Counted from the first letter of the stretch, positions 8,617-17,365 are shown. The stretch: 64,000 nt of DNA from an uncultured Pseudomonadales bacterium (GCA_964511175.1 CAZEEI010000002.1:66063-130062); one strand, 5' to 3'. Notes: a model not told the origin generated them from the sequence alone. Numbers and translations are program-made.

Positions 8617-9345
8617 ATGGTCAAGTTCGAAAAGGTTAGCAAGATTTTTGCCAATGGTTATATCGGTTTGCAGGACGTTTCCTTTATCATTGAGCCTCAG
8701 ACCTTAACTTATTTAGTCGGTGAGTCTGGCGCGGGCAAAACTACCTTGATGCGCCTATTGATTCGGGAAATGCCGGTTTCGGAAGGGGAAATTTGGATTG
8801 ACGACTGGTCGGTGACACAGTTGCCTAACAAAGAAATACCGCACCTGCGCCGGAAAGTAGCGGTGGTTTTTCAAGACTACAAGTTAATAGCCGACCGCAA
8901 TGTTTGGGAGAATGTCGCCTTACCTCTGGAAATTGTCGGTACATCGGCGGCGGTTTTAAACCAGCAAGTGCAGGATGTTTTAGACCTAGTTGGCTTGGCT
9001 GATCGGGGCGACATGTTTCCTACCCAATTATCAGGGGGAGAGTTACAGAGAGTATCTTTAGCCCGTTCGCTAATTACTTCGCCTAAAGTTTTATTTGCCG
9101 ACGAACCAACCGGCAACTTAGATCCAAAAACCTCACGCGCCATTGGTGAGTTGCTCCACAAGATTAGTGAGTTGGGCACGACCGTCATTATTGCCACCCA
9201 CGATCAAGTCTTGCTGCAAGATTTTCCGGCCAGGGAACTCCATCTACATAAGGGCAAATTGGTCAAAGATACCGGCACACGATCTAAACCAGCTCCCGCC
9301 ACCCAATCCAAACAGCGGAAAAAAGAGAAAAAGGAAAAGTTATGA
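8617..9345 (+). CDS. ftsE: cell division ATP-binding protein FtsE
   Basis: Walker A GESGAGKTT, signature LSGGELQRVSLARSL, Walker B LFADEPTGNLD. It is followed by an FtsX-like permease with a 4-nt overlap. Confidence 0.85.
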   Translation: MVKFEKVSKIFANGYIGLQDVSFIIEPQTLTYLVGESGAGKTTLMRLLIREMPVSEGEIWIDDWSVTQLPNKEIPHLRRKVAVVFQDYKLIADRNVWENVALPLEIVGTSAAVLNQQVQDVLDLVGLADRGDMFPTQLSGGELQRVSLARSLITSPKVLFADEPTGNLDPKTSRAIGELLHKISELGTTVIIATHDQVLLQDFPARELHLHKGKLVKDTGTRSKPAPATQSKQRKKEKKEKL

Positions 9346-10211
9346 ATTCCTTCAGCCAAGCGGTGAAAAGCATCCGTCGTTCGCCTTATCAGGCTATGGC
9401 GGCTACTATCATCCTCTTCTTAACTTTTTTTATCGGTTACAGTTTAGCCCTTTTTCTGCTTGGTTCCCACCAGGTTTTGCTTTACTTTGAAACCCGCCCG
9501 CAGGTTACTGCCTTCTTCCGCCAAGATACCACTTTGCCGCAATTACAAAGCTACGCTGAAGCTCTCAAGCAAAAGAGCTACGTCAAAAACGTCAAATTGG
9601 TTTCCCAAGAGGAAGCGTTGGAGATTTATCGCCAGCAGTCAAGTAACGATCCAGTTATGCTCGAGTTAGTAACAGCTGATATTTTGCCGCCCTCCCTGGA
9701 AGTTTCAACCTTTGCGCTGGACCAGTTAGCCCAAGTGGCTGCCGATTTACAGCAGTTGGCGGGCATTGACGAAGTAGTGTACCAGGAGGATGTGATCGCT
9801 GGTTTACGTCATTGGGCAACATTGTTGCGTCAGATTGGTTTGGCCATCATGGCAATCTTTACCGTTACGTCATTGCTGGTGATTCTGGTTATTACTAGCA
9901 TCCGGATCGCGAGCAAAAAGTTGGAAATTAGGGTACTGCGCCTAATGGGAGCTACTAAATGGTATATTCAGCGCCCCTTTTTATTGGAAGGAATGTTCTA
10001 CGGCGTGCTGGGATCGGTTTTGTCCTGGGGTGCGGTATATATTATTCTGCTTTACGCCAGTCCCAGCATTCAACAGTTTTTCGGCGAAGTACAATTATTA
10101 CCCGTGCCGGCAGAACTGATGCTAGCTCTACTAGCGGCTGGTACTGGCTTAGGCTTAATTTTAGGTATGTTGGCTAGCTTGTTAAGTGCGCGTCGGTTGT
10201 ACCGTATCTAG
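9342..10211 (+). CDS. ftsX: cell division permease FtsX
   Basis: An N-terminal TM helix, an extracellular loop domain and 3 C-terminal TM helices. The start overlaps ftsE as ATGA. Confidence 0.8.
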   Translation: MNSFSQAVKSIRRSPYQAMAATIILFLTFFIGYSLALFLLGSHQVLLYFETRPQVTAFFRQDTTLPQLQSYAEALKQKSYVKNVKLVSQEEALEIYRQQSSNDPVMLELVTADILPPSLEVSTFALDQLAQVAADLQQLAGIDEVVYQEDVIAGLRHWATLLRQIGLAIMAIFTVTSLLVILVITSIRIASKKLEIRVLRLMGATKWYIQRPFLLEGMFYGVLGSVLSWGAVYIILLYASPSIQQFFGEVQLLPVPAELMLALLAAGTGLGLILGMLASLLSARRLYRI

Positions 10212-10232
10212 AACCCTTTATACTGCTAATAC

Positions 10233-11468
10233 ATGCGTAAGATCTGGTCTGCTTGGCTATCTGGTTTAGTAATGATCCTGCTGGTGGGTTTTGCTTTGGC
10301 AGCCACTCAGCCCGTCCTGGCCGAAGAGTCAACCAGTGCTAGTACCGAAAAACAGAGCGCCATCGACAGGCTAAATCAAGAAATTCAAGATTTACAAAAT
10401 AAAATCAAGGACGCGCAGAACGAACAGAATACTTTAGCCAGCACGATTAAGTTTTTGGATAGCAAGATTTTGTTGACCGGTAAGGAAATTGAAAAATCCG
10501 AACGGGAAATTGAATTGTTGGAAGCGGCGATCGATGATCTAGGGCAGCGTATTCAAGGGCTAGAAGTTAATCTGCACGATCTCTCTGCCGAGTTGATCGA
10601 ACGCGTCCAAGAGCAATACAAACGCAGCTCGACCGATGCCGTCTCGGTGATTTTTGCCACGACCGGTTTTACCGATTTATTTAAAGAACATAAATATCTG
10701 GTCCAACTACGGGCTCATACCCAACGGTTGCTTTTGGATACAGAGACTAAGCGCCAACAATACGATGCGGAAAAGGGTAATAAGGAGGCCAAGCAAAAGG
10801 AGGTGGAGGCCTTGCGGCGTAAGTTGGAGGCTAACCGGCGTGATTTGTTAAGTCAGCAGGCGGCCAAAAAACAATTACTAGTTGAAACCCAGAATAGTGA
10901 GGCTAAGTACCAAAGTTTGTTGGCCCAGGCCAAATCGCAATTGGCTGCTCTCCACCGCTTCGTAGTGGGTCAAGGTGGCGCCAGTATTTTGCAGAATCAA
11001 ACTAAATGTGACGATTGGGGTTGTTACTATAACCAGCGGGATTCCCAGTGGGGTAATATCAGTTTAGGCGGTTCGTCATACTCGGTGGCGGAATACGGCT
11101 GTTTGGTTAGTTCGGTAGCGATGGTAGCCACTCATTACGGCAAAAATATTAAACCAGCCGACATTGCGGTAATATCTGCGGCTTTTGTACCAGGGTACGG
11201 TTGGCTTTATCATTCGTTTGCGGTTAACGGTACACAAGTTAACCTAACTAGTGCTTCCCGTAGTCTGCTGGATAACGAACTAGCGGCTGGGCGGCCGGTG
11301 ATCGCCGGTTTATACTCTGGTCCGGATCACTTTATCGTTATTGTGCGCAAAGAAGGGGATAACTACATCATGCATGACCCCTTTTTAGAGAATGGCAGTT
11401 ATCGATCGCTGACCGACAAATACAATGTCGCCGACATTCGCAGTTTGCGCCTAGTACGGTTCAATTAG
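10233..11468 (+). CDS. secreted coiled-coil protein with a C-terminal papain-like (Peptidase_C39_2-like) cysteine peptidase domain; PcsB/EnvC-type FtsEX partner candidate
   Basis: Signal peptide, then roughly 200 aa of heptad-rich coiled coil (LQNKIKDAQNEQNTLASTIKFLDSKI...). The C-terminus carries Cys in YGCLVSSVAMVATHYG and His in HFIVIVRKEGDNYIMHDPF, matching the C39-like Cys/His layout. Confidence 0.5.
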   Translation: MRKIWSAWLSGLVMILLVGFALAATQPVLAEESTSASTEKQSAIDRLNQEIQDLQNKIKDAQNEQNTLASTIKFLDSKILLTGKEIEKSEREIELLEAAIDDLGQRIQGLEVNLHDLSAELIERVQEQYKRSSTDAVSVIFATTGFTDLFKEHKYLVQLRAHTQRLLLDTETKRQQYDAEKGNKEAKQKEVEALRRKLEANRRDLLSQQAAKKQLLVETQNSEAKYQSLLAQAKSQLAALHRFVVGQGGASILQNQTKCDDWGCYYNQRDSQWGNISLGGSSYSVAEYGCLVSSVAMVATHYGKNIKPADIAVISAAFVPGYGWLYHSFAVNGTQVNLTSASRSLLDNELAAGRPVIAGLYSGPDHFIVIVRKEGDNYIMHDPFLENGSYRSLTDKYNVADIRSLRLVRFN

Positions 11469-12379: not shown

Positions 12380-12772
12380 GTGTCTAGTTGGCAGAAATGG
12401 TTTTCTTTTGGACCGGCGGCGGCGTGGTACGCCTTCATTTTTTGGCTTTCCAGCCAGCCCAAACTGCCTGGTCCTGAAAATACTTTAGCGCAATTGTTAT
12501 GGTTTAAAACCGCCCACCTGATTTTTTACGCCATTCTCACTTGTTTATTAATTTGGGCCCTGCGACAGACAATGCACTGGCGAGCCGCCACTTACCGCTG
12601 GTTACTGTTGCTGGCTTTTTGGTTAGTGGTATTCCCGGCTGGACTAGACGAGCTTCACCAGGGTTTAGTGCCGGGGCGCCATATGCGTTGGCGAGACATA
12701 GTAGTTGACGCATCGGCAGCTGCGGCTGTAATCCTGGTATTCTCGCGGTATAATCGCCCTGGTAAGCCTTAA
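12380..12772 (+). CDS. VanZ-like family membrane protein
   Basis: Four TM helices and a conserved C-terminal acidic/Arg region (GRHMRWRDIVVDA), typical of the VanZ-like family. Confidence 0.45.
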   Translation: MSSWQKWFSFGPAAAWYAFIFWLSSQPKLPGPENTLAQLLWFKTAHLIFYAILTCLLIWALRQTMHWRAATYRWLLLLAFWLVVFPAGLDELHQGLVPGRHMRWRDIVVDASAAAAVILVFSRYNRPGKP

Positions 12773-12774
12773 TT

Positions 12775-12852
12775 CGGGATGTAGCTCAGATGGCTTAGAG
12801 CGCACGCATGGGGTGCGTGAGGTCGCTGGTTCGAGTCCAGTCATCCCGACCA
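12775..12852 (+). tRNA. tRNA-Pro (anticodon GGG), 3' CCA encoded
   Basis: Manual cloverleaf: acceptor CGGGATG/CATCCCG, D-arm GCTC..GAGC, anticodon stem CACGC/GCGTG with loop AUGGGGU (U33, anticodon GGG, G37). T-arm GCTGG-TTCGAGT-CCAGT, discriminator A, then CCA. Confidence 0.8.
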
Positions 12853-12991
12853 TAAGCAGCCGTTCAAAAACGGTCACCTGTTTTCTGTGGAATTATAAGA
12901 GAGGTTGTTTTATCAGTAACTATTTTGCAAACTTGGACATACTCTTCTTATCGGTTTAGAATCTACTCAGTACAAAATTAACGGAGGTACG

Positions 12992-13201
12992 ATGTCTGAA
13001 ACTCAACCAAAGGTGTTGAGCGACCAGGACACAACGCGCAATGTCCAATTCTATGACAACCTCATGCCCATGTTGCCTGAAGATGGGGTTACCCGATATT
13101 TAGTCAAAGATGGTGAAAGACACGAGCTTTCTGAGCTCAATAGGGTCGACTGGTTGATTCTCAACGCCCTGTTTCCACAAGGTCCTCAAGTACTGTCCTA
13201 A
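12992..13201 (+). CDS. small hypothetical protein (69 aa)
   Basis: An ORF with GGAGG-like RBS (aacggaggtacgATG). No recognisable motifs. It is the first gene after tRNA-Pro, in an AT-richer block. Confidence 0.3.
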   Translation: MSETQPKVLSDQDTTRNVQFYDNLMPMLPEDGVTRYLVKDGERHELSELNRVDWLILNALFPQGPQVLS

Positions 13202-13237
13202 ACCAATAGCCAACAAATTAGGAAGAAACCATCGACC

Positions 13238-14002
13238 ATGGGTATAAAAATTGTCTGTTTAAACTTATGGAATGGTGGCTTTCTCTTTGAGTCAATGGTG
13301 GAGTACCTACAAAGAGAAAAAGCCGATATTTATTTACTGCAAGAAGTTTTTAATGGGACTGATCCTCATTTACCGCCGCAACATAGGACATTCACCGAGC
13401 TTCAGCAGCAACTTGATTTACCCCACGGACATTTTGCACCATGCTTTAATGAAAATATTAATGGAGCTGTCATTGTTCAAGGTAACGCAATTTTTAGTAG
13501 ATTTCCCCTACAAGAAGTTTCGGTAACGTTCTATGATGTTCCGTTTGGAGCACGCGACAATACCAGAGAAGCATTTCCCTTTTCGCCGCGCAATCTGCAG
13601 CACGTCAAAACCGCAGTTGGTTCTCACGAACTCCATTTATTGAACACACAAGGGATTTGGGGTGAAGATGGTCAGGATTCACCAAGACGCTTGAATATGG
13701 CGACATACATCATACGAGAGATAGATGGTTGTACGCCATTAGTTTTAGCCGGGGATTTCAATGTACAGCCGGAAACTCAAGCCATTGCCTTGATTGAAAG
13801 TAAGCTACACAACGTATTCAAAGGTGAATTGGACACATCATTCAACCTTAAGCGGAAAGATCTGGTTAGGGATCCAGGCTTTACTTCGGCCGTGGTGGAT
13901 ATGTTTTTTATAACTCCTGACTTGAAAGTAACTAAGCAGGTTTGTCCTAAAGTTGACGTATCCGATCACTACCCCTTAGTGGTGGAACTAGACATCGGCT
14001 AG
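13238..14002 (+). CDS. endonuclease/exonuclease/phosphatase (EEP) family protein
   Basis: EEP hallmarks: N-terminal LNLWNGG, catalytic Glu in LLQEV, and C-terminal GDFN...SDHYPLVVELD. No signal peptide is evident. Confidence 0.65.
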   Translation: MGIKIVCLNLWNGGFLFESMVEYLQREKADIYLLQEVFNGTDPHLPPQHRTFTELQQQLDLPHGHFAPCFNENINGAVIVQGNAIFSRFPLQEVSVTFYDVPFGARDNTREAFPFSPRNLQHVKTAVGSHELHLLNTQGIWGEDGQDSPRRLNMATYIIREIDGCTPLVLAGDFNVQPETQAIALIESKLHNVFKGELDTSFNLKRKDLVRDPGFTSAVVDMFFITPDLKVTKQVCPKVDVSDHYPLVVELDIG

Positions 14003-14071
14003 TTTAAGTATCATCCTTGGTTGTGCTATAGTTTTAGATATAGATATAACAAAATATCTAGAAAGGGCGTT

Positions 14072-14398
14072 ATGCCAATAGGTTGGGGTAGAAAAAAAGA
14101 ACACCAAGCAGCAGTTCCAGAAGTTCTTAGTGTCGATGCCCGAGCGCAGGCATTGCTTGATCAGTCAGTGCCTGAGGGACAGCGGTGGTATACAGCCTTT
14201 TTTAAAGTAGTGCTGATAGTTGAGGGCGCCGTACTCAGGGTTGGACCCGTTCCAATTACCGTTCAATCGGTTGAGCTTGATAAGTTAGGCGGTATTATCC
14301 ACACAGTGGATGGTGTTGAGGTGGCTTTTCGTTATGCCGGCGGCGATAAGAGTTTTGTCAAAGTGCATTGTTTGCAAGACCAAAATCGTCAGAGATAG
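14072..14398 (+). CDS. hypothetical protein
   Basis: The ORF track starts at 14021. The internal ATG (MPIGWG) sits downstream of an AGAAAGGG RBS-like stretch. No motifs were recognised. Confidence 0.3.
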   Translation: MPIGWGRKKEHQAAVPEVLSVDARAQALLDQSVPEGQRWYTAFFKVVLIVEGAVLRVGPVPITVQSVELDKLGGIIHTVDGVEVAFRYAGGDKSFVKVHCLQDQNRQR

Positions 14399-14470
14399 CC
14401 AAGATGGGGCTTAGAGCGCCGGGTGTTGTTTTGTATTCATCATTGATACCGAATGATACAATAGGAGCCT

Positions 14471-14851
14471 ATGCCACGAAAAATAGAAGTACCTCAACCC
14501 CTTGACGATTCAATGTCCTTGCCGGATGCCATGCGTGCTTTGGGTTGGTTTGATGCCAGTAAACCGACAATTAATAATTTGTACTCGATTCATCGACATA
14601 TTAACAATCTTTTGAGTTTTATAGATACTTTGCCGGCCAGTGTGGTTACCATCCAAAAATCAATAGATATGCTTTCGGTTTTGGTCATTATTTTGAACAA
14701 ACACTTAAGCTCAATGCCTCCGATTATTAAATCGACAACTATAGAATTAGGTGTTCGCAACAAGATTGAGGAAGCAATTGGGGCTCTTTCCTTTTACCAG
14801 CGCGGTTTTGCGCGGGCGGCTAGTTTATCCGGGGATAAATCGGTAAGATAA
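14471..14851 (+). CDS. hypothetical protein, paralogue A of a duplicated small-protein pair
   Basis: Its N-terminus (PLDDSMSLPDAMRALGWFDASKP) is shared with the ORF at 15720..16091. The stop lies 4 nt before the next ORF. Confidence 0.4.
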   Translation: MPRKIEVPQPLDDSMSLPDAMRALGWFDASKPTINNLYSIHRHINNLLSFIDTLPASVVTIQKSIDMLSVLVIILNKHLSSMPPIIKSTTIELGVRNKIEEAIGALSFYQRGFARAASLSGDKSVR

Positions 14852-14855
14852 AAAA

Positions 14856-15713
14856 ATGTCAACGGAATTGCTGCGTTACCCCGAACATCTCCGTCAATCT
14901 CTAAAATTAGATGGACTAGAACTTGCCAATTTTAATTTTTCGTTAGGATTGAGAGAAATTTTGCAAAAACGCGGTATCAGCGCCCTACCCTTGATTTATT
15001 TGGGTGCCGGCGGCGATTGGTGGACAGCAGCGCTGATTTCGGGCTCATCGCATCTTGTTTTAGTTGATTCGCATCCGTTTTTGAGCAAAGGAGACGTTGA
15101 AGACGGACTTTTTGCCAGTCTAGACGAATTGTTTAGGGCGGTTAATCCAGAGCGTGAACGTTTGGGTGCCACGCGGGCAGGGAAAGATGTGCAACCGGCT
15201 GTGCAGATGGTGGCTAATTTATTCAGGATCGGCATCGGTCGAAATAATATTCGTATCACTACCAATGACGGCCGGGATGCTCGCGTCAAAATTAAACTAG
15301 GTAAGCAGGAAATGCGGGTAGATTTTTGTTCCCGAATCGTTAAGAGTGCGGCTGAGCTTGGGATTCTACTGCATGATCAGGATATCGATGGCGAATACGG
15401 CATAATGGCTAAGGGGGGAGCCGACCGCGCTTTAACCACGATTATTAATCAATTAAGTCAGCAACCCGATTTTCAACCCCTCTATTTTGTGGTGGATGAC
15501 CCGCGATCCATGGCAGGAAAAACTTTGACGGTGGCCGAAGAGGCAAAGTTGTTTTCGGGATATGATTTGCAGGAGAGGAAGTCTGATCAAGAAACTGGCT
15601 GGGGTTATTCCTGGAATGAAGAACCGGGTGGCCAGGCTGGACCGGCAGCCAATGAGTTTGATTACCGTACGCGGGCTGTGGTGGGGATTCGCCGGCCTAA
15701 TTTACCTTACTAA
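14856..15713 (+). CDS. hypothetical protein (285 aa), possible Rossmann-like fold
   Basis: LIYLGAGGDWWTAALISGSSHLVLVDSHP resembles a Gly-rich nucleotide-binding loop followed by an acidic beta2 end. No secure family assignment is possible. Confidence 0.35.
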   Translation: MSTELLRYPEHLRQSLKLDGLELANFNFSLGLREILQKRGISALPLIYLGAGGDWWTAALISGSSHLVLVDSHPFLSKGDVEDGLFASLDELFRAVNPERERLGATRAGKDVQPAVQMVANLFRIGIGRNNIRITTNDGRDARVKIKLGKQEMRVDFCSRIVKSAAELGILLHDQDIDGEYGIMAKGGADRALTTIINQLSQQPDFQPLYFVVDDPRSMAGKTLTVAEEAKLFSGYDLQERKSDQETGWGYSWNEEPGGQAGPAANEFDYRTRAVVGIRRPNLPY

Positions 15714-15719
15714 GCTAGT

Positions 15720-16091
15720 GTGATATTCTCGGCAATAGTTATGGCTACAAAAGAAGGATATTTACCTATTGATCGATCTATGTCGCTAGAGACGGCTTTG
15801 TCCGTGCTTGGCTTGTTTGATTCAAAACAAGGGTTGTTCGTGGTTGATGCCACCATGGAAGCACTAATCGAGCAAACGAGTCGATTTTTGCGTGCTAGAA
15901 CAACTGATTTGGCTCGACTGCATATTGATGATCTTTATGTATTAAGGGACATTTTGAGTCGAACAAAAGGGGAAGAAAAGCGAAGCGCACCAGAGTTGGC
16001 TCATATCCGGGATGCCTATATCACCGTTAACACTTATCTTCGGGGTTTAGTCGATGGCCGCTTGTTTCAGAGCAAAGAGATGGTGCGCTAG
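15720..16091 (+). CDS. hypothetical protein, paralogue B of the duplicated small-protein pair
   Basis: Its N-terminus (LPIDRSMSLETALSVLGLFDSKQG) matches paralogue A, and the C-terminal two-thirds diverge. It ends 5 nt before the convergent gdh stop. Confidence 0.4.
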   Translation: MIFSAIVMATKEGYLPIDRSMSLETALSVLGLFDSKQGLFVVDATMEALIEQTSRFLRARTTDLARLHIDDLYVLRDILSRTKGEEKRSAPELAHIRDAYITVNTYLRGLVDGRLFQSKEMVR

Positions 16092-16096
16092 AAGCT

Positions 16097-17365
16097 CTAA
16101 GCCACGCCCCGCAATAGCATCGCCTCAATAACGCGTTTCACGCCCAAAACATATGCCGCCTGTCGGTAGGAAAGTGAACGTTGCTCTGCCAGCTGGGCAA
16201 TCGCCTGCCAGGCGGTGAGTTGATGTTCCTGCAGTTCGGTTTGCACGCGCTCCAGTGTCCAACGGTAGCCATGCAGGTTTTGCACCCACTCAAAATAACT
16301 AACTGTGACACCACCAGCGTTACAGAGCACGTCAGGAAGCACGTCAATATGACGTTTTTGTAGCGCCTCATCTGCTTCTGGTGTGGTGGGTCCGTTAGCC
16401 ATTTCTAAGATGGTTTTGGCTTGAATCTGCTCCACATTATCAGCATGAATAGTGTTTTCCAACGCCGCCGGCACCAGGATGTCGACCGGTAGAGCCAATA
16501 ATTTTTGGTTGGTGATATATTCCCAGCCCAATTCTTGTGCCGCTTTTTCCAGAGAGCCGAGCCGCTGTTTGGCCTCAATCGCCATGGTGGGGTTAAGGCC
16601 AGTGGCGAGGTAAACGGCGCCGCGGGAATCAGAGAGAGCTACAATTTTGAAACCGCGCTGGTAGGCAAACTCAGCAAACCAGGAACCAACGTTACCCATG
16701 CCTTGGATCGCTACACTGGTTGAACTTGGTTCGAGCTTTTTTGATCGCGCGTAGGCTTCTAGGATATGAACACCACCTTGGCCGGTAGCCTCAGTGCGGC
16801 CCAGTGAACCACCAAGCTCAATAGGTTTGCCAGTAAATGTGGCTGGAGCCAACTGGCCAATAGTTTTTTCGTAAGCATCCAGCATCCAGGCCATAATTTG
16901 ACCATTAGTGTTAACATCTGGGGCAGGTACATCTTGCCATGGCCCGATATGAGGTGCCAACCATTGAGCGTAGGCCTGAGCCAAACGCTGGAGTTCAGTG
17001 CGGGACAAAGTATGAGGATCAACCGCAATTCCTCCTTTAGAGCCACCAAAGGGAATGTCGGCAATGGCGCACTTCCAGGTCATCCACATGGAAAGGGCTT
17101 GTACTTCTTCCACCGATACTTGAGGGTGAAAACGTAAACCACCTTTATACGGGCCGCGGGCCGCGTTATGTTGGCTGCGGTAAGCTGGGAAAGTAGCAGT
17201 TTCACCATTATCCAGTTTGATGGTTAATTGCTCCGACCAAAGGTGTTCTGGTTTTTGTAAAAGAGCAACAGCCTGACGGAATCGTTCCTGGTCGGCAAAC
17301 TCACTCGCCAGAAGAGGGACGATAGCGCTAAGCTGCTGTTGGGCGACAGCGAGCGGCGAATCCAT
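16097..17365 (-). CDS. gdhA: Glu/Leu/Phe/Val-family glutamate dehydrogenase
   Basis: Catalytic Lys motif GGSKGGIAVDP, Rossmann motif GMGNVG, and a length (422 aa) typical of GdhA. Confidence 0.85.
   Translation of the reverse strand: MDSPLAVAQQQLSAIVPLLASEFADQERFRQAVALLQKPEHLWSEQLTIKLDNGETATFPAYRSQHNAARGPYKGGLRFHPQVSVEEVQALSMWMTWKCAIADIPFGGSKGGIAVDPHTLSRTELQRLAQAYAQWLAPHIGPWQDVPAPDVNTNGQIMAWMLDAYEKTIGQLAPATFTGKPIELGGSLGRTEATGQGGVHILEAYARSKKLEPSSTSVAIQGMGNVGSWFAEFAYQRGFKIVALSDSRGAVYLATGLNPTMAIEAKQRLGSLEKAAQELGWEYITNQKLLALPVDILVPAALENTIHADNVEQIQAKTILEMANGPTTPEADEALQKRHIDVLPDVLCNAGGVTVSYFEWVQNLHGYRWTLERVQTELQEHQLTAWQAIAQLAEQRSLSYRQAAYVLGVKRVIEAMLLRGVA

Follow-up and report, generated by a model that had tools for sequence, protein, structure and literature searches.

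A rare protein family with a predicted methyltransferase fold and two small, most likely paralogous neighbours in a proposed accessory gene block of a probable Patescibacteria chromosome

What is encoded by a cluster of three genes, here called A, B and C, in which two small proteins with similar N-termini bracket a third protein of 285 amino acids (aa)? The cluster lies in a stretch of 64,000 nucleotides (nt) deposited for an uncultured Pseudomonadales bacterium (GCA_964511175.1, CAZEEI010000002.1:66063-130062), and the whole of this stretch is referred to below as the window. The first-pass annotation could place none of the three proteins in a known family by inspection and likened the cluster to polymorphic toxin/immunity or adaptor-effector arrangements. 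The three open reading frames (ORFs) were confirmed on the plus strand where that annotation had put them (Table 1). The reading that we favour, with moderate confidence, is that of a lineage-specific accessory block between a tRNA-Pro gene and the glutamate dehydrogenase gene (gdh), in which B has a methyltransferase fold and A and C are old paralogues. The host chromosome is probably that of a member of the Patescibacteria (candidate phyla radiation). The block consists of six co-directional genes (S69, a gene for a hydrolase of the endonuclease/exonuclease/phosphatase (EEP) family, U, A, B and C) within 3.2 kb, the run starting 139 nt after tRNA-Pro. Both its base composition and its codon use are atypical, and it is possibly an acquisition.

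A word-indexed homology search with protein B returned only B itself. When 1.84 billion cluster representatives were scanned in full with HMMER, 12 others scored E ≤ 0.001, and ten proteins, B included, reached E ≤ 1e-10; identities were 28-45%. The match of one representative, P0015 (2138 aa, aligned to B residues 109-155), was judged spurious, the protein being an Ig-repeat surface protein, and it was left out of the family alignment, which has 12 rows, B and 11 genuine relatives. Across these rows L36, P45, L46, Y48, G50, G52, D54, G104 and P114 are invariant, while S51, G53, F75, G182, P208, Y210, D214, D215 and Y251, among others, are nearly so. Neither Pfam nor NCBIfam gave a match for B, no Pfam methyltransferase model matched any of the 12 aligned members, and the best match of the B profile among PDB sequences was to an unrelated lipoprotein (E = 0.11).

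Modelling of B from its single sequence with AlphaFold2 was uninformative (predicted local distance difference test score, pLDDT, of 34), and with the 12-row alignment the model reached a pLDDT of 86.9 and a predicted template modelling score (pTM) of 0.87. Structure prediction and fold search together indicated a Rossmann-like alpha/beta fold with the strand order of class I S-adenosylmethionine (SAM)-dependent methyltransferases, in agreement with the Rossmann-like fold at which the first-pass annotation had hinted, and the rRNA methyltransferases KsgA and Erm were among the best fold matches. In the model, strand 46-49 leads into G50-A-G52-G53-D54, the glycine-rich loop of motif I, and strand 66-71 ends at D71, where 10/12 family members have an Asp. 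D71 would correspond to the position contacting the ribose of SAM in class I methyltransferases. Strand 210-214 runs into the sequence DDPR, a candidate catalytic or metal-binding motif. An insertion of ~60 residues follows strand 2 and is itself followed by a three-stranded meander at residues 132-159. On the strength of the model, B represents a new and very divergent family with a predicted class I methyltransferase fold, rare and unannotated, whose members would be expected to use SAM. B would most likely bind SAM through the glycine-rich loop together with Asp71, and would transfer a methyl (or other SAM-derived) group to a substrate. Among the 1.84 billion representatives the family accounts for about a dozen clusters, seen so far in Patescibacteria and hitherto without annotation, and it can be labelled as a divergent family of predicted class I SAM-dependent methyltransferase fold. 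Its conserved motifs are PL.Y.GSGGD, DDPR, WGYS and an Asp that closes strand 2, and the label gives a cofactor to test.

The distribution of the family was examined in a scan of species-representative genomes, which gave six loci with relatives of B. Four of the six are labelled Patescibacteria or Woesebacteria, and the other two are labelled "uncultured Pseudomonadales", both from one co-assembly project. These two B homologues (L006, CAZBKJ010000010.1, and L007, CAZOWX010000002.1) stand on contigs so titled. Those co-assembly bins are probably mislabelled, because all other members of the B family are from Patescibacteria. Four further loci came from metagenomes, and no relatives of B were found in viral contigs.

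The neighbourhoods of B homologues were read at 17 loci and fall into ~8 unrelated contexts. At L003-L005 and L012-L014 the B homologue lies before genes for a small membrane protein and an IMPase/HisN-like phosphatase, the latter being the next gene. At L008 and L015 (5854-6738) its start overlaps the end of the gene for 6-phosphogluconate dehydrogenase (6PGDH) by 4 nt, within a pentose-phosphate cluster of the order G6PDH-DUF5674-x-6PGDH-B ... RPE-transketolase, the labels for glucose-6-phosphate dehydrogenase (G6PDH), ribulose-phosphate epimerase (RPE) and transketolase having been read from the N-termini of the ORFs and not from profile matches. In one lineage (L017, 1585-2403, and L018, 1794-2612) the B homologue P0011 sits between rpsJ (S10) and rplC (L3), preceded by an 87-aa membrane protein, inside the normally compact S10 operon. 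Elsewhere it precedes a DUF1761 protein (L016), follows DUF5995 (L019) or stands alone between unrelated genes (L006, L007 and L009). The phosphatase and the pentose-phosphate genes make a loose and unproven link of B to sugar-phosphate metabolism. A separate observation concerns the closest B homologue, upstream of which an 807-aa protein (L004/L012, 2839-5262) gave a weak match to an NCBIfam model of an anti-phage protein (DS41_1, E = 5e-4, which falls far short of the cut-off).

No partner of B recurs across lineages, whether the IMPase-like phosphatase, DUF1761, the pentose-phosphate genes or the ribosomal operon. When A, C, U and S69 were run with phmmer, and a hidden Markov model (HMM) of the motif shared by A and C was run as well, against the six-frame translations of the 17 loci, nothing was found (all E > 0.5). 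The A-B-C trio is therefore not a conserved unit, and it is only in this genome that the pair flanks B: since B homologues elsewhere lack A-like and C-like neighbours, B works without either, and the trio is a local arrangement with no conserved three-component system behind it.

Proteins A and C resemble one another in a segment of 22 residues near the N-terminus, 11/22 of which are identical (E = 2e-5 in a BLASTP comparison of the pair only). The Smith-Waterman score of 55 compares with 25.8 ± 4.4 for shuffled sequences and was reached by 0/5000 shuffles. The segment starts at nearly the same offset, residue 10 of A and residue 9 of C counted from its ATG start. At the DNA level 35/66 positions are identical, with 12, 15 and 8 of 22 matches at codon positions 1, 2 and 3. 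The motif is conserved at the protein level and is no recent DNA repeat. Third codon positions are randomised, which points to selection on the peptide after an old duplication and argues indirectly for translation of both frames. Over the other ~90 residues A and C gave a local score of 24 against 22.9 ± 4.0 for shuffles and a global z of ~0.1-1.0, neither of them significant; a MAFFT alignment ran collinearly, with 28% identity and with ID.L.VL..IL and Y.RG among its islands. The homologous N-termini and divergent C-terminal parts described in the first-pass annotation were thus both borne out, the N-terminal similarity being real.

The likeliest reading of these results is that A and C are old paralogues that have diverged, a relationship that would extend over their full length. 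They would descend from one small protein by an old duplication, after which purifying selection would have kept only a short capped N-terminal helix, D-x-SMSL-xx-A-xxx-LG-x-FD, while the rest diverged. The motif has presumably been kept for a contact that A and C each still make, in the same way, with one shared partner. A pair of paralogues in which only a 22-residue element survived divergence points to a specific contact. Otherwise A and C are ORFans of a kind abundant in genomes of the candidate phyla radiation, and nothing at the locus suggests a new type of system.

Several points weigh against this account. Just two copies of the motif are known, there being no other in any of the six frames of the window, and a phmmer search across these frames linked A with C at only E ~0.08. 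The searches of large databases with A and C were word-indexed only (5.8 billion proteins, returning only A and C themselves); the same tool overlooked homologues of B that are 45% identical to it, and its negative for A and C thus covers close relatives only, so that remote ones may exist. Lastly, the tight packing of A, B and C would also suit a functional complex.

This packing had been described in the first-pass annotation as a spacing of 4-6 nt. The interval between A and B is indeed 4 nt. That between B and C is 6 nt only if C starts at the GTG at 15720, giving a protein of 123 aa, and is 27 nt with the ATG at 15741 that is used in the public gene call. Neither B nor C has a good ribosome-binding site, none being visible ahead of C. 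No terminator-like site was found between A, B and C and so a single A-B-C transcript, as first proposed, is plausible; the genes of the block may be co-transcribed.

The best surviving alternative starts from this arrangement and takes A and C as paralogous accessory subunits of B, activators or substrate adaptors, which dock by the N-terminal helix while their divergent parts select a target or a state. Their position directly on either side of B without an intervening terminator is as it should be for such subunits, coupled translation would fit the poor ribosome-binding sites of B and C, and a motif that is the only part conserved between A and C is what would be expected of a shared docking element. 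However, at none of the 17 loci does a B homologue have an A-like or C-like neighbour or the motif, and the arrangement is known from one genome only. We regard this alternative as rather unlikely. It is likewise unlikely, and a little more so, that A and C are lineage-specific partners that dock by the shared helix and, with their divergent bodies, redirect or regulate a methyltransferase-fold enzyme which stands alone elsewhere in the candidate phyla radiation. If A and C were partners of this kind, a new enzyme family would have, at this locus, a modular adaptor system of recent origin.

A second alternative denies that A and C need explaining together: their resemblance would be fortuitous, or one or both would be over-calls or decaying remnants, leaving only B and the EEP hydrolase as functional products. 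The shortness of the match and the phmmer value given above would suit it. So would the codon log-odds of A, which at 0.050 is low compared with the 0.10-0.26 of the long genes of the window, as would the missing ribosome-binding site of C and the want of homologues of A and C, hence of evidence from conservation. Low values (0.03-0.08) are, in the same way, found for S69, U and the EEP gene, and those of B (0.16) and C (0.11) are normal. All six ORFs of the block score positively and highest in their own frame, though, and the ORFs of A and C fill the intergenic gaps almost completely, A with an AGGAG site ahead of it. Moreover, no shuffle reached the observed score, the motif has the same offset in two genes that are near neighbours, and the three codon positions differ in the way that selection on the peptide would produce. 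Chance or miscalling is in our view quite unlikely. The region is identical to the window (0 mismatches) in two Logan assemblies of different runs, and the proteins are also recorded on a 201-kb NCBI contig in the protein collection; the locus is invariant across three independent assemblies.

Could the block be a horizontally acquired islet at tRNA-Pro that carries a conflict system, either toxin-antitoxin or immunity pairs or a defence formed by a nuclease and a methyltransferase? It adjoins a tRNA gene and brings together an EEP hydrolase, a methyltransferase-fold protein and four ORFans. The G+C content (GC) is 0.40-0.45 over 12800-15000 and ~0.50 in the flanks, GC at third codon positions (GC3) is 0.39-0.53 in the six genes (0.39-0.45 without S69) against 0.485 ± 0.04 for the long genes of the window, and codon scores fall below those of core genes. 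A low-GC patch after tRNA-Pro may reflect acquired or fast-evolving genes. Inside the block, immediately after the stop codon of U, lies a fragment resembling the D-arm of tRNA-Pro, which matches positions 12782-12803 of that gene in 22/24 aligned columns with a 2-nt insertion. Neither ARAGORN nor Rfam calls a tRNA there, and a permissive Rfam scan of 12700-16300 found tRNA only. It may be what is left of a tRNA or of an integration event; it may also belong to a weak terminator, or have arisen by chance. Another match to the same tRNA segment, 11 nt long and lying over the stop codon of gdh at 16094-16104, is probably chance.

Against an islet of this kind, no integrase domain or mobility gene was found between 12853 and 16096, no direct repeat of the tRNA-Pro 3' end (att-type) lies at the far border, and PADLOC, PHROGs, Pfam and NCBIfam returned no toxin, antitoxin or defence match. 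Relatives of B occur in housekeeping contexts and were absent from viral contigs, enzymes of the EEP family are mostly not restriction-type nucleases, and the three assemblies show the same locus without variation. We consider such a system very unlikely.

The same evidence bears on the toxin/immunity or adaptor-effector analogy from which the question arose, for which no toxin, immunity, secretion or defence model was matched. PADLOC assigned none of A, B, C, U and S69 to a family. A and C, at 116-126 aa, carry no recognisable toxin domain at the C-terminus and no recognisable trafficking or secretion domain at the N-terminus, and no immunity gene was found directly downstream of either, A being followed by B and C by the convergent gdh. 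Of the conserved module joined to variable C-termini only the two copies were found, with none further in the window, the 17 loci, viral contigs or the k-mer protein search. The toxin/immunity or adaptor-effector analogy is not supported. Nor could any of the three proteins be placed in an ordinary metabolic operon.

Searches of Pfam, NCBIfam, PADLOC and PHROGs with A and C, whole or as N- and C-terminal halves (the halves scanned to E ≤ 10), gave nothing below E ~0.1, and in the same collections B, U and S69 had no family. Two weak resemblances emerged from other searches. Among PDB sequences, residues 50-105 of A matched HR2, a heptad repeat in the spike of SARS-type coronaviruses (E = 0.0085; local pattern ASVV.IQK.ID.L....LN..L), and this was rejected as an effect of coiled-coil-like composition, probably reflecting helical heptad character only. 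C aligned collinearly over ~78/116 residues with several uL22 chains of its own length, the best at E = 0.049 (PDB), which is not significant; a pairwise comparison with E. coli RplV gave E = 6e-4 and 19/80 identities. That C (and A too, perhaps, by way of the motif) is a far-diverged uL22 paralogue in a ribosome-related block, with B as a methyltransferase of rRNA or ribosomal proteins, could also draw on KsgA and Erm among the fold matches and on the homologue between rpsJ and rplC, but the L22 models of Pfam and NCBIfam miss C, A is unlike L22, adding A weakens the profile match (E = 0.19; hhalign probability 1.4%) and KsgA is just one of many methyltransferases scoring equally, so that this idea is highly improbable and the uL22 resemblance of C an unproven lead. 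A search of the literature found nothing relevant.

The remaining features of the block and its borders are included in Table 1. Ahead of S69 is a sigma-70-like promoter match, and promoter-like sites in the region are no commoner than in shuffled sequence. The EEP hydrolase gave further matches to an NCBIfam PRK05421-type model (E = 5e-6, below the cut-off) and to PDB 3g6s (E = 6e-4). Only 5 nt separate the stop codon of C from gdh. Upstream of the block are the housekeeping genes prfB, ftsE, ftsX, that of a protein combining a coiled coil and a C39-like peptidase domain, and VanZ, and downstream are glycosyltransferases, YqeY, an epimerase and ruvCAB. The coiled-coil protein (within 8617-11468, after ftsE and ftsX) is 411 aa long. 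It joins an extended coiled coil to a Peptidase_C39-like domain at the C-terminus (E = 8e-7) and has no LytM/M23 domain, an arrangement closer to the PcsB-type partners of FtsEX (coiled coil plus cysteine peptidase) than to EnvC.

Table 1. Features of the A-B-C cluster and of the surrounding block, in window coordinates.
Feature	Position	Strand	Description and basis
A	14471..14851	+	126 aa, small basic protein, isoelectric point (pI) 9.45; AGGAG ribosome-binding site; ORFan (k-mer search)
Shared N-terminal motif in A, residues 10-31: PLDDSMSLPDAMRALGWFDASK	14498..14563	+	BLASTP, Smith-Waterman
B	14856..15713	+	285 aa; predicted class I SAM-dependent methyltransferase fold
B residues 45-54, PLIYLGAGGD	14988..15017	+	Predicted strand 1 and glycine-rich loop (motif I); alignment, model secondary structure
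B residues 66-71, HLVLVD	15051..15068	+	Predicted strand 2 ending in acidic D71; alignment, model
B residues 208-217, PLYFVVDDPR	15477..15506	+	Predicted strand, then nearly invariant DDPR; alignment, model
C	15741..16091	+	116 aa from ATG, pI 6.7; ORFan (k-mer search)
Shared N-terminal motif in C, residues 9-30 (ATG start): PIDRSMSLETALSVLGLFDSKQ	15765..15830	+	BLASTP, Smith-Waterman
tRNA-Pro (GGG), left boundary of block	12775..12852	+	ARAGORN; Rfam RF00005, 59.1 bits
Sigma-70-like promoter match TGGACA-17-TAGAAT ahead of S69	12934..12962	+	10/12, consensus match only
S69	12992..13201	+	69-aa ORFan; gene call; GGAGG ribosome-binding site; no family match
EEP family hydrolase	13238..14002	+	254 aa; PF03372, E = 7.1e-14
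U	14072..14398	+	108-aa ORFan; gene call; no family match; codon score best in own frame
tRNA D-arm-like fragment in U-A spacer: TAGCCAAGATGGGGCTTAGAGCGC vs TAGCTCAGAT--GGCTTAGAGCGC of tRNA-Pro	14396..14419	+	
gdh (glutamate dehydrogenase), convergent, right boundary	16097..17365	-	PF02812, PF00208

Set beside known systems, the cluster has in common with polymorphic toxin cassettes only an abstract pattern, a conserved N-terminal stretch with a divergent remainder and tight spacing, and it differs from them in that A and C are only ~120 aa long and present as two copies instead of arrays, while B has a housekeeping-type fold and is solitary elsewhere. The block as a whole recalls tRNA-linked islets in adjoining tRNA-Pro, in its lower GC and GC3 and in its wealth of ORFans; in contrast to them it is only 3.2 kb long and is without an integrase, a flanking repeat of the tRNA 3' end or mobility genes. 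B itself may be compared with class I SAM methyltransferases such as KsgA/RsmA (PDB 6ifv, 3ftc) and catechol O-methyltransferase (4pyo, 3bwm), with which identity is only 7-16%. The B family has motifs of its own (DDPR, WGYS and RAV) that cannot be mapped to a known catalytic motif, it has the insertion and meander described above, and it stands outside the methyltransferase profiles of Pfam and NCBIfam. A last comparison concerns the flanking proteins. Trm112 is a small partner of the methyltransferases Trm9, Trm11, Mtq2 and Bud23. A and C have no similarity to Trm112 or to any known partner and their association is not conserved in the B family, but like partners of the Trm112 type they are small and encoded beside a methyltransferase-fold enzyme, and their shared element could dock.

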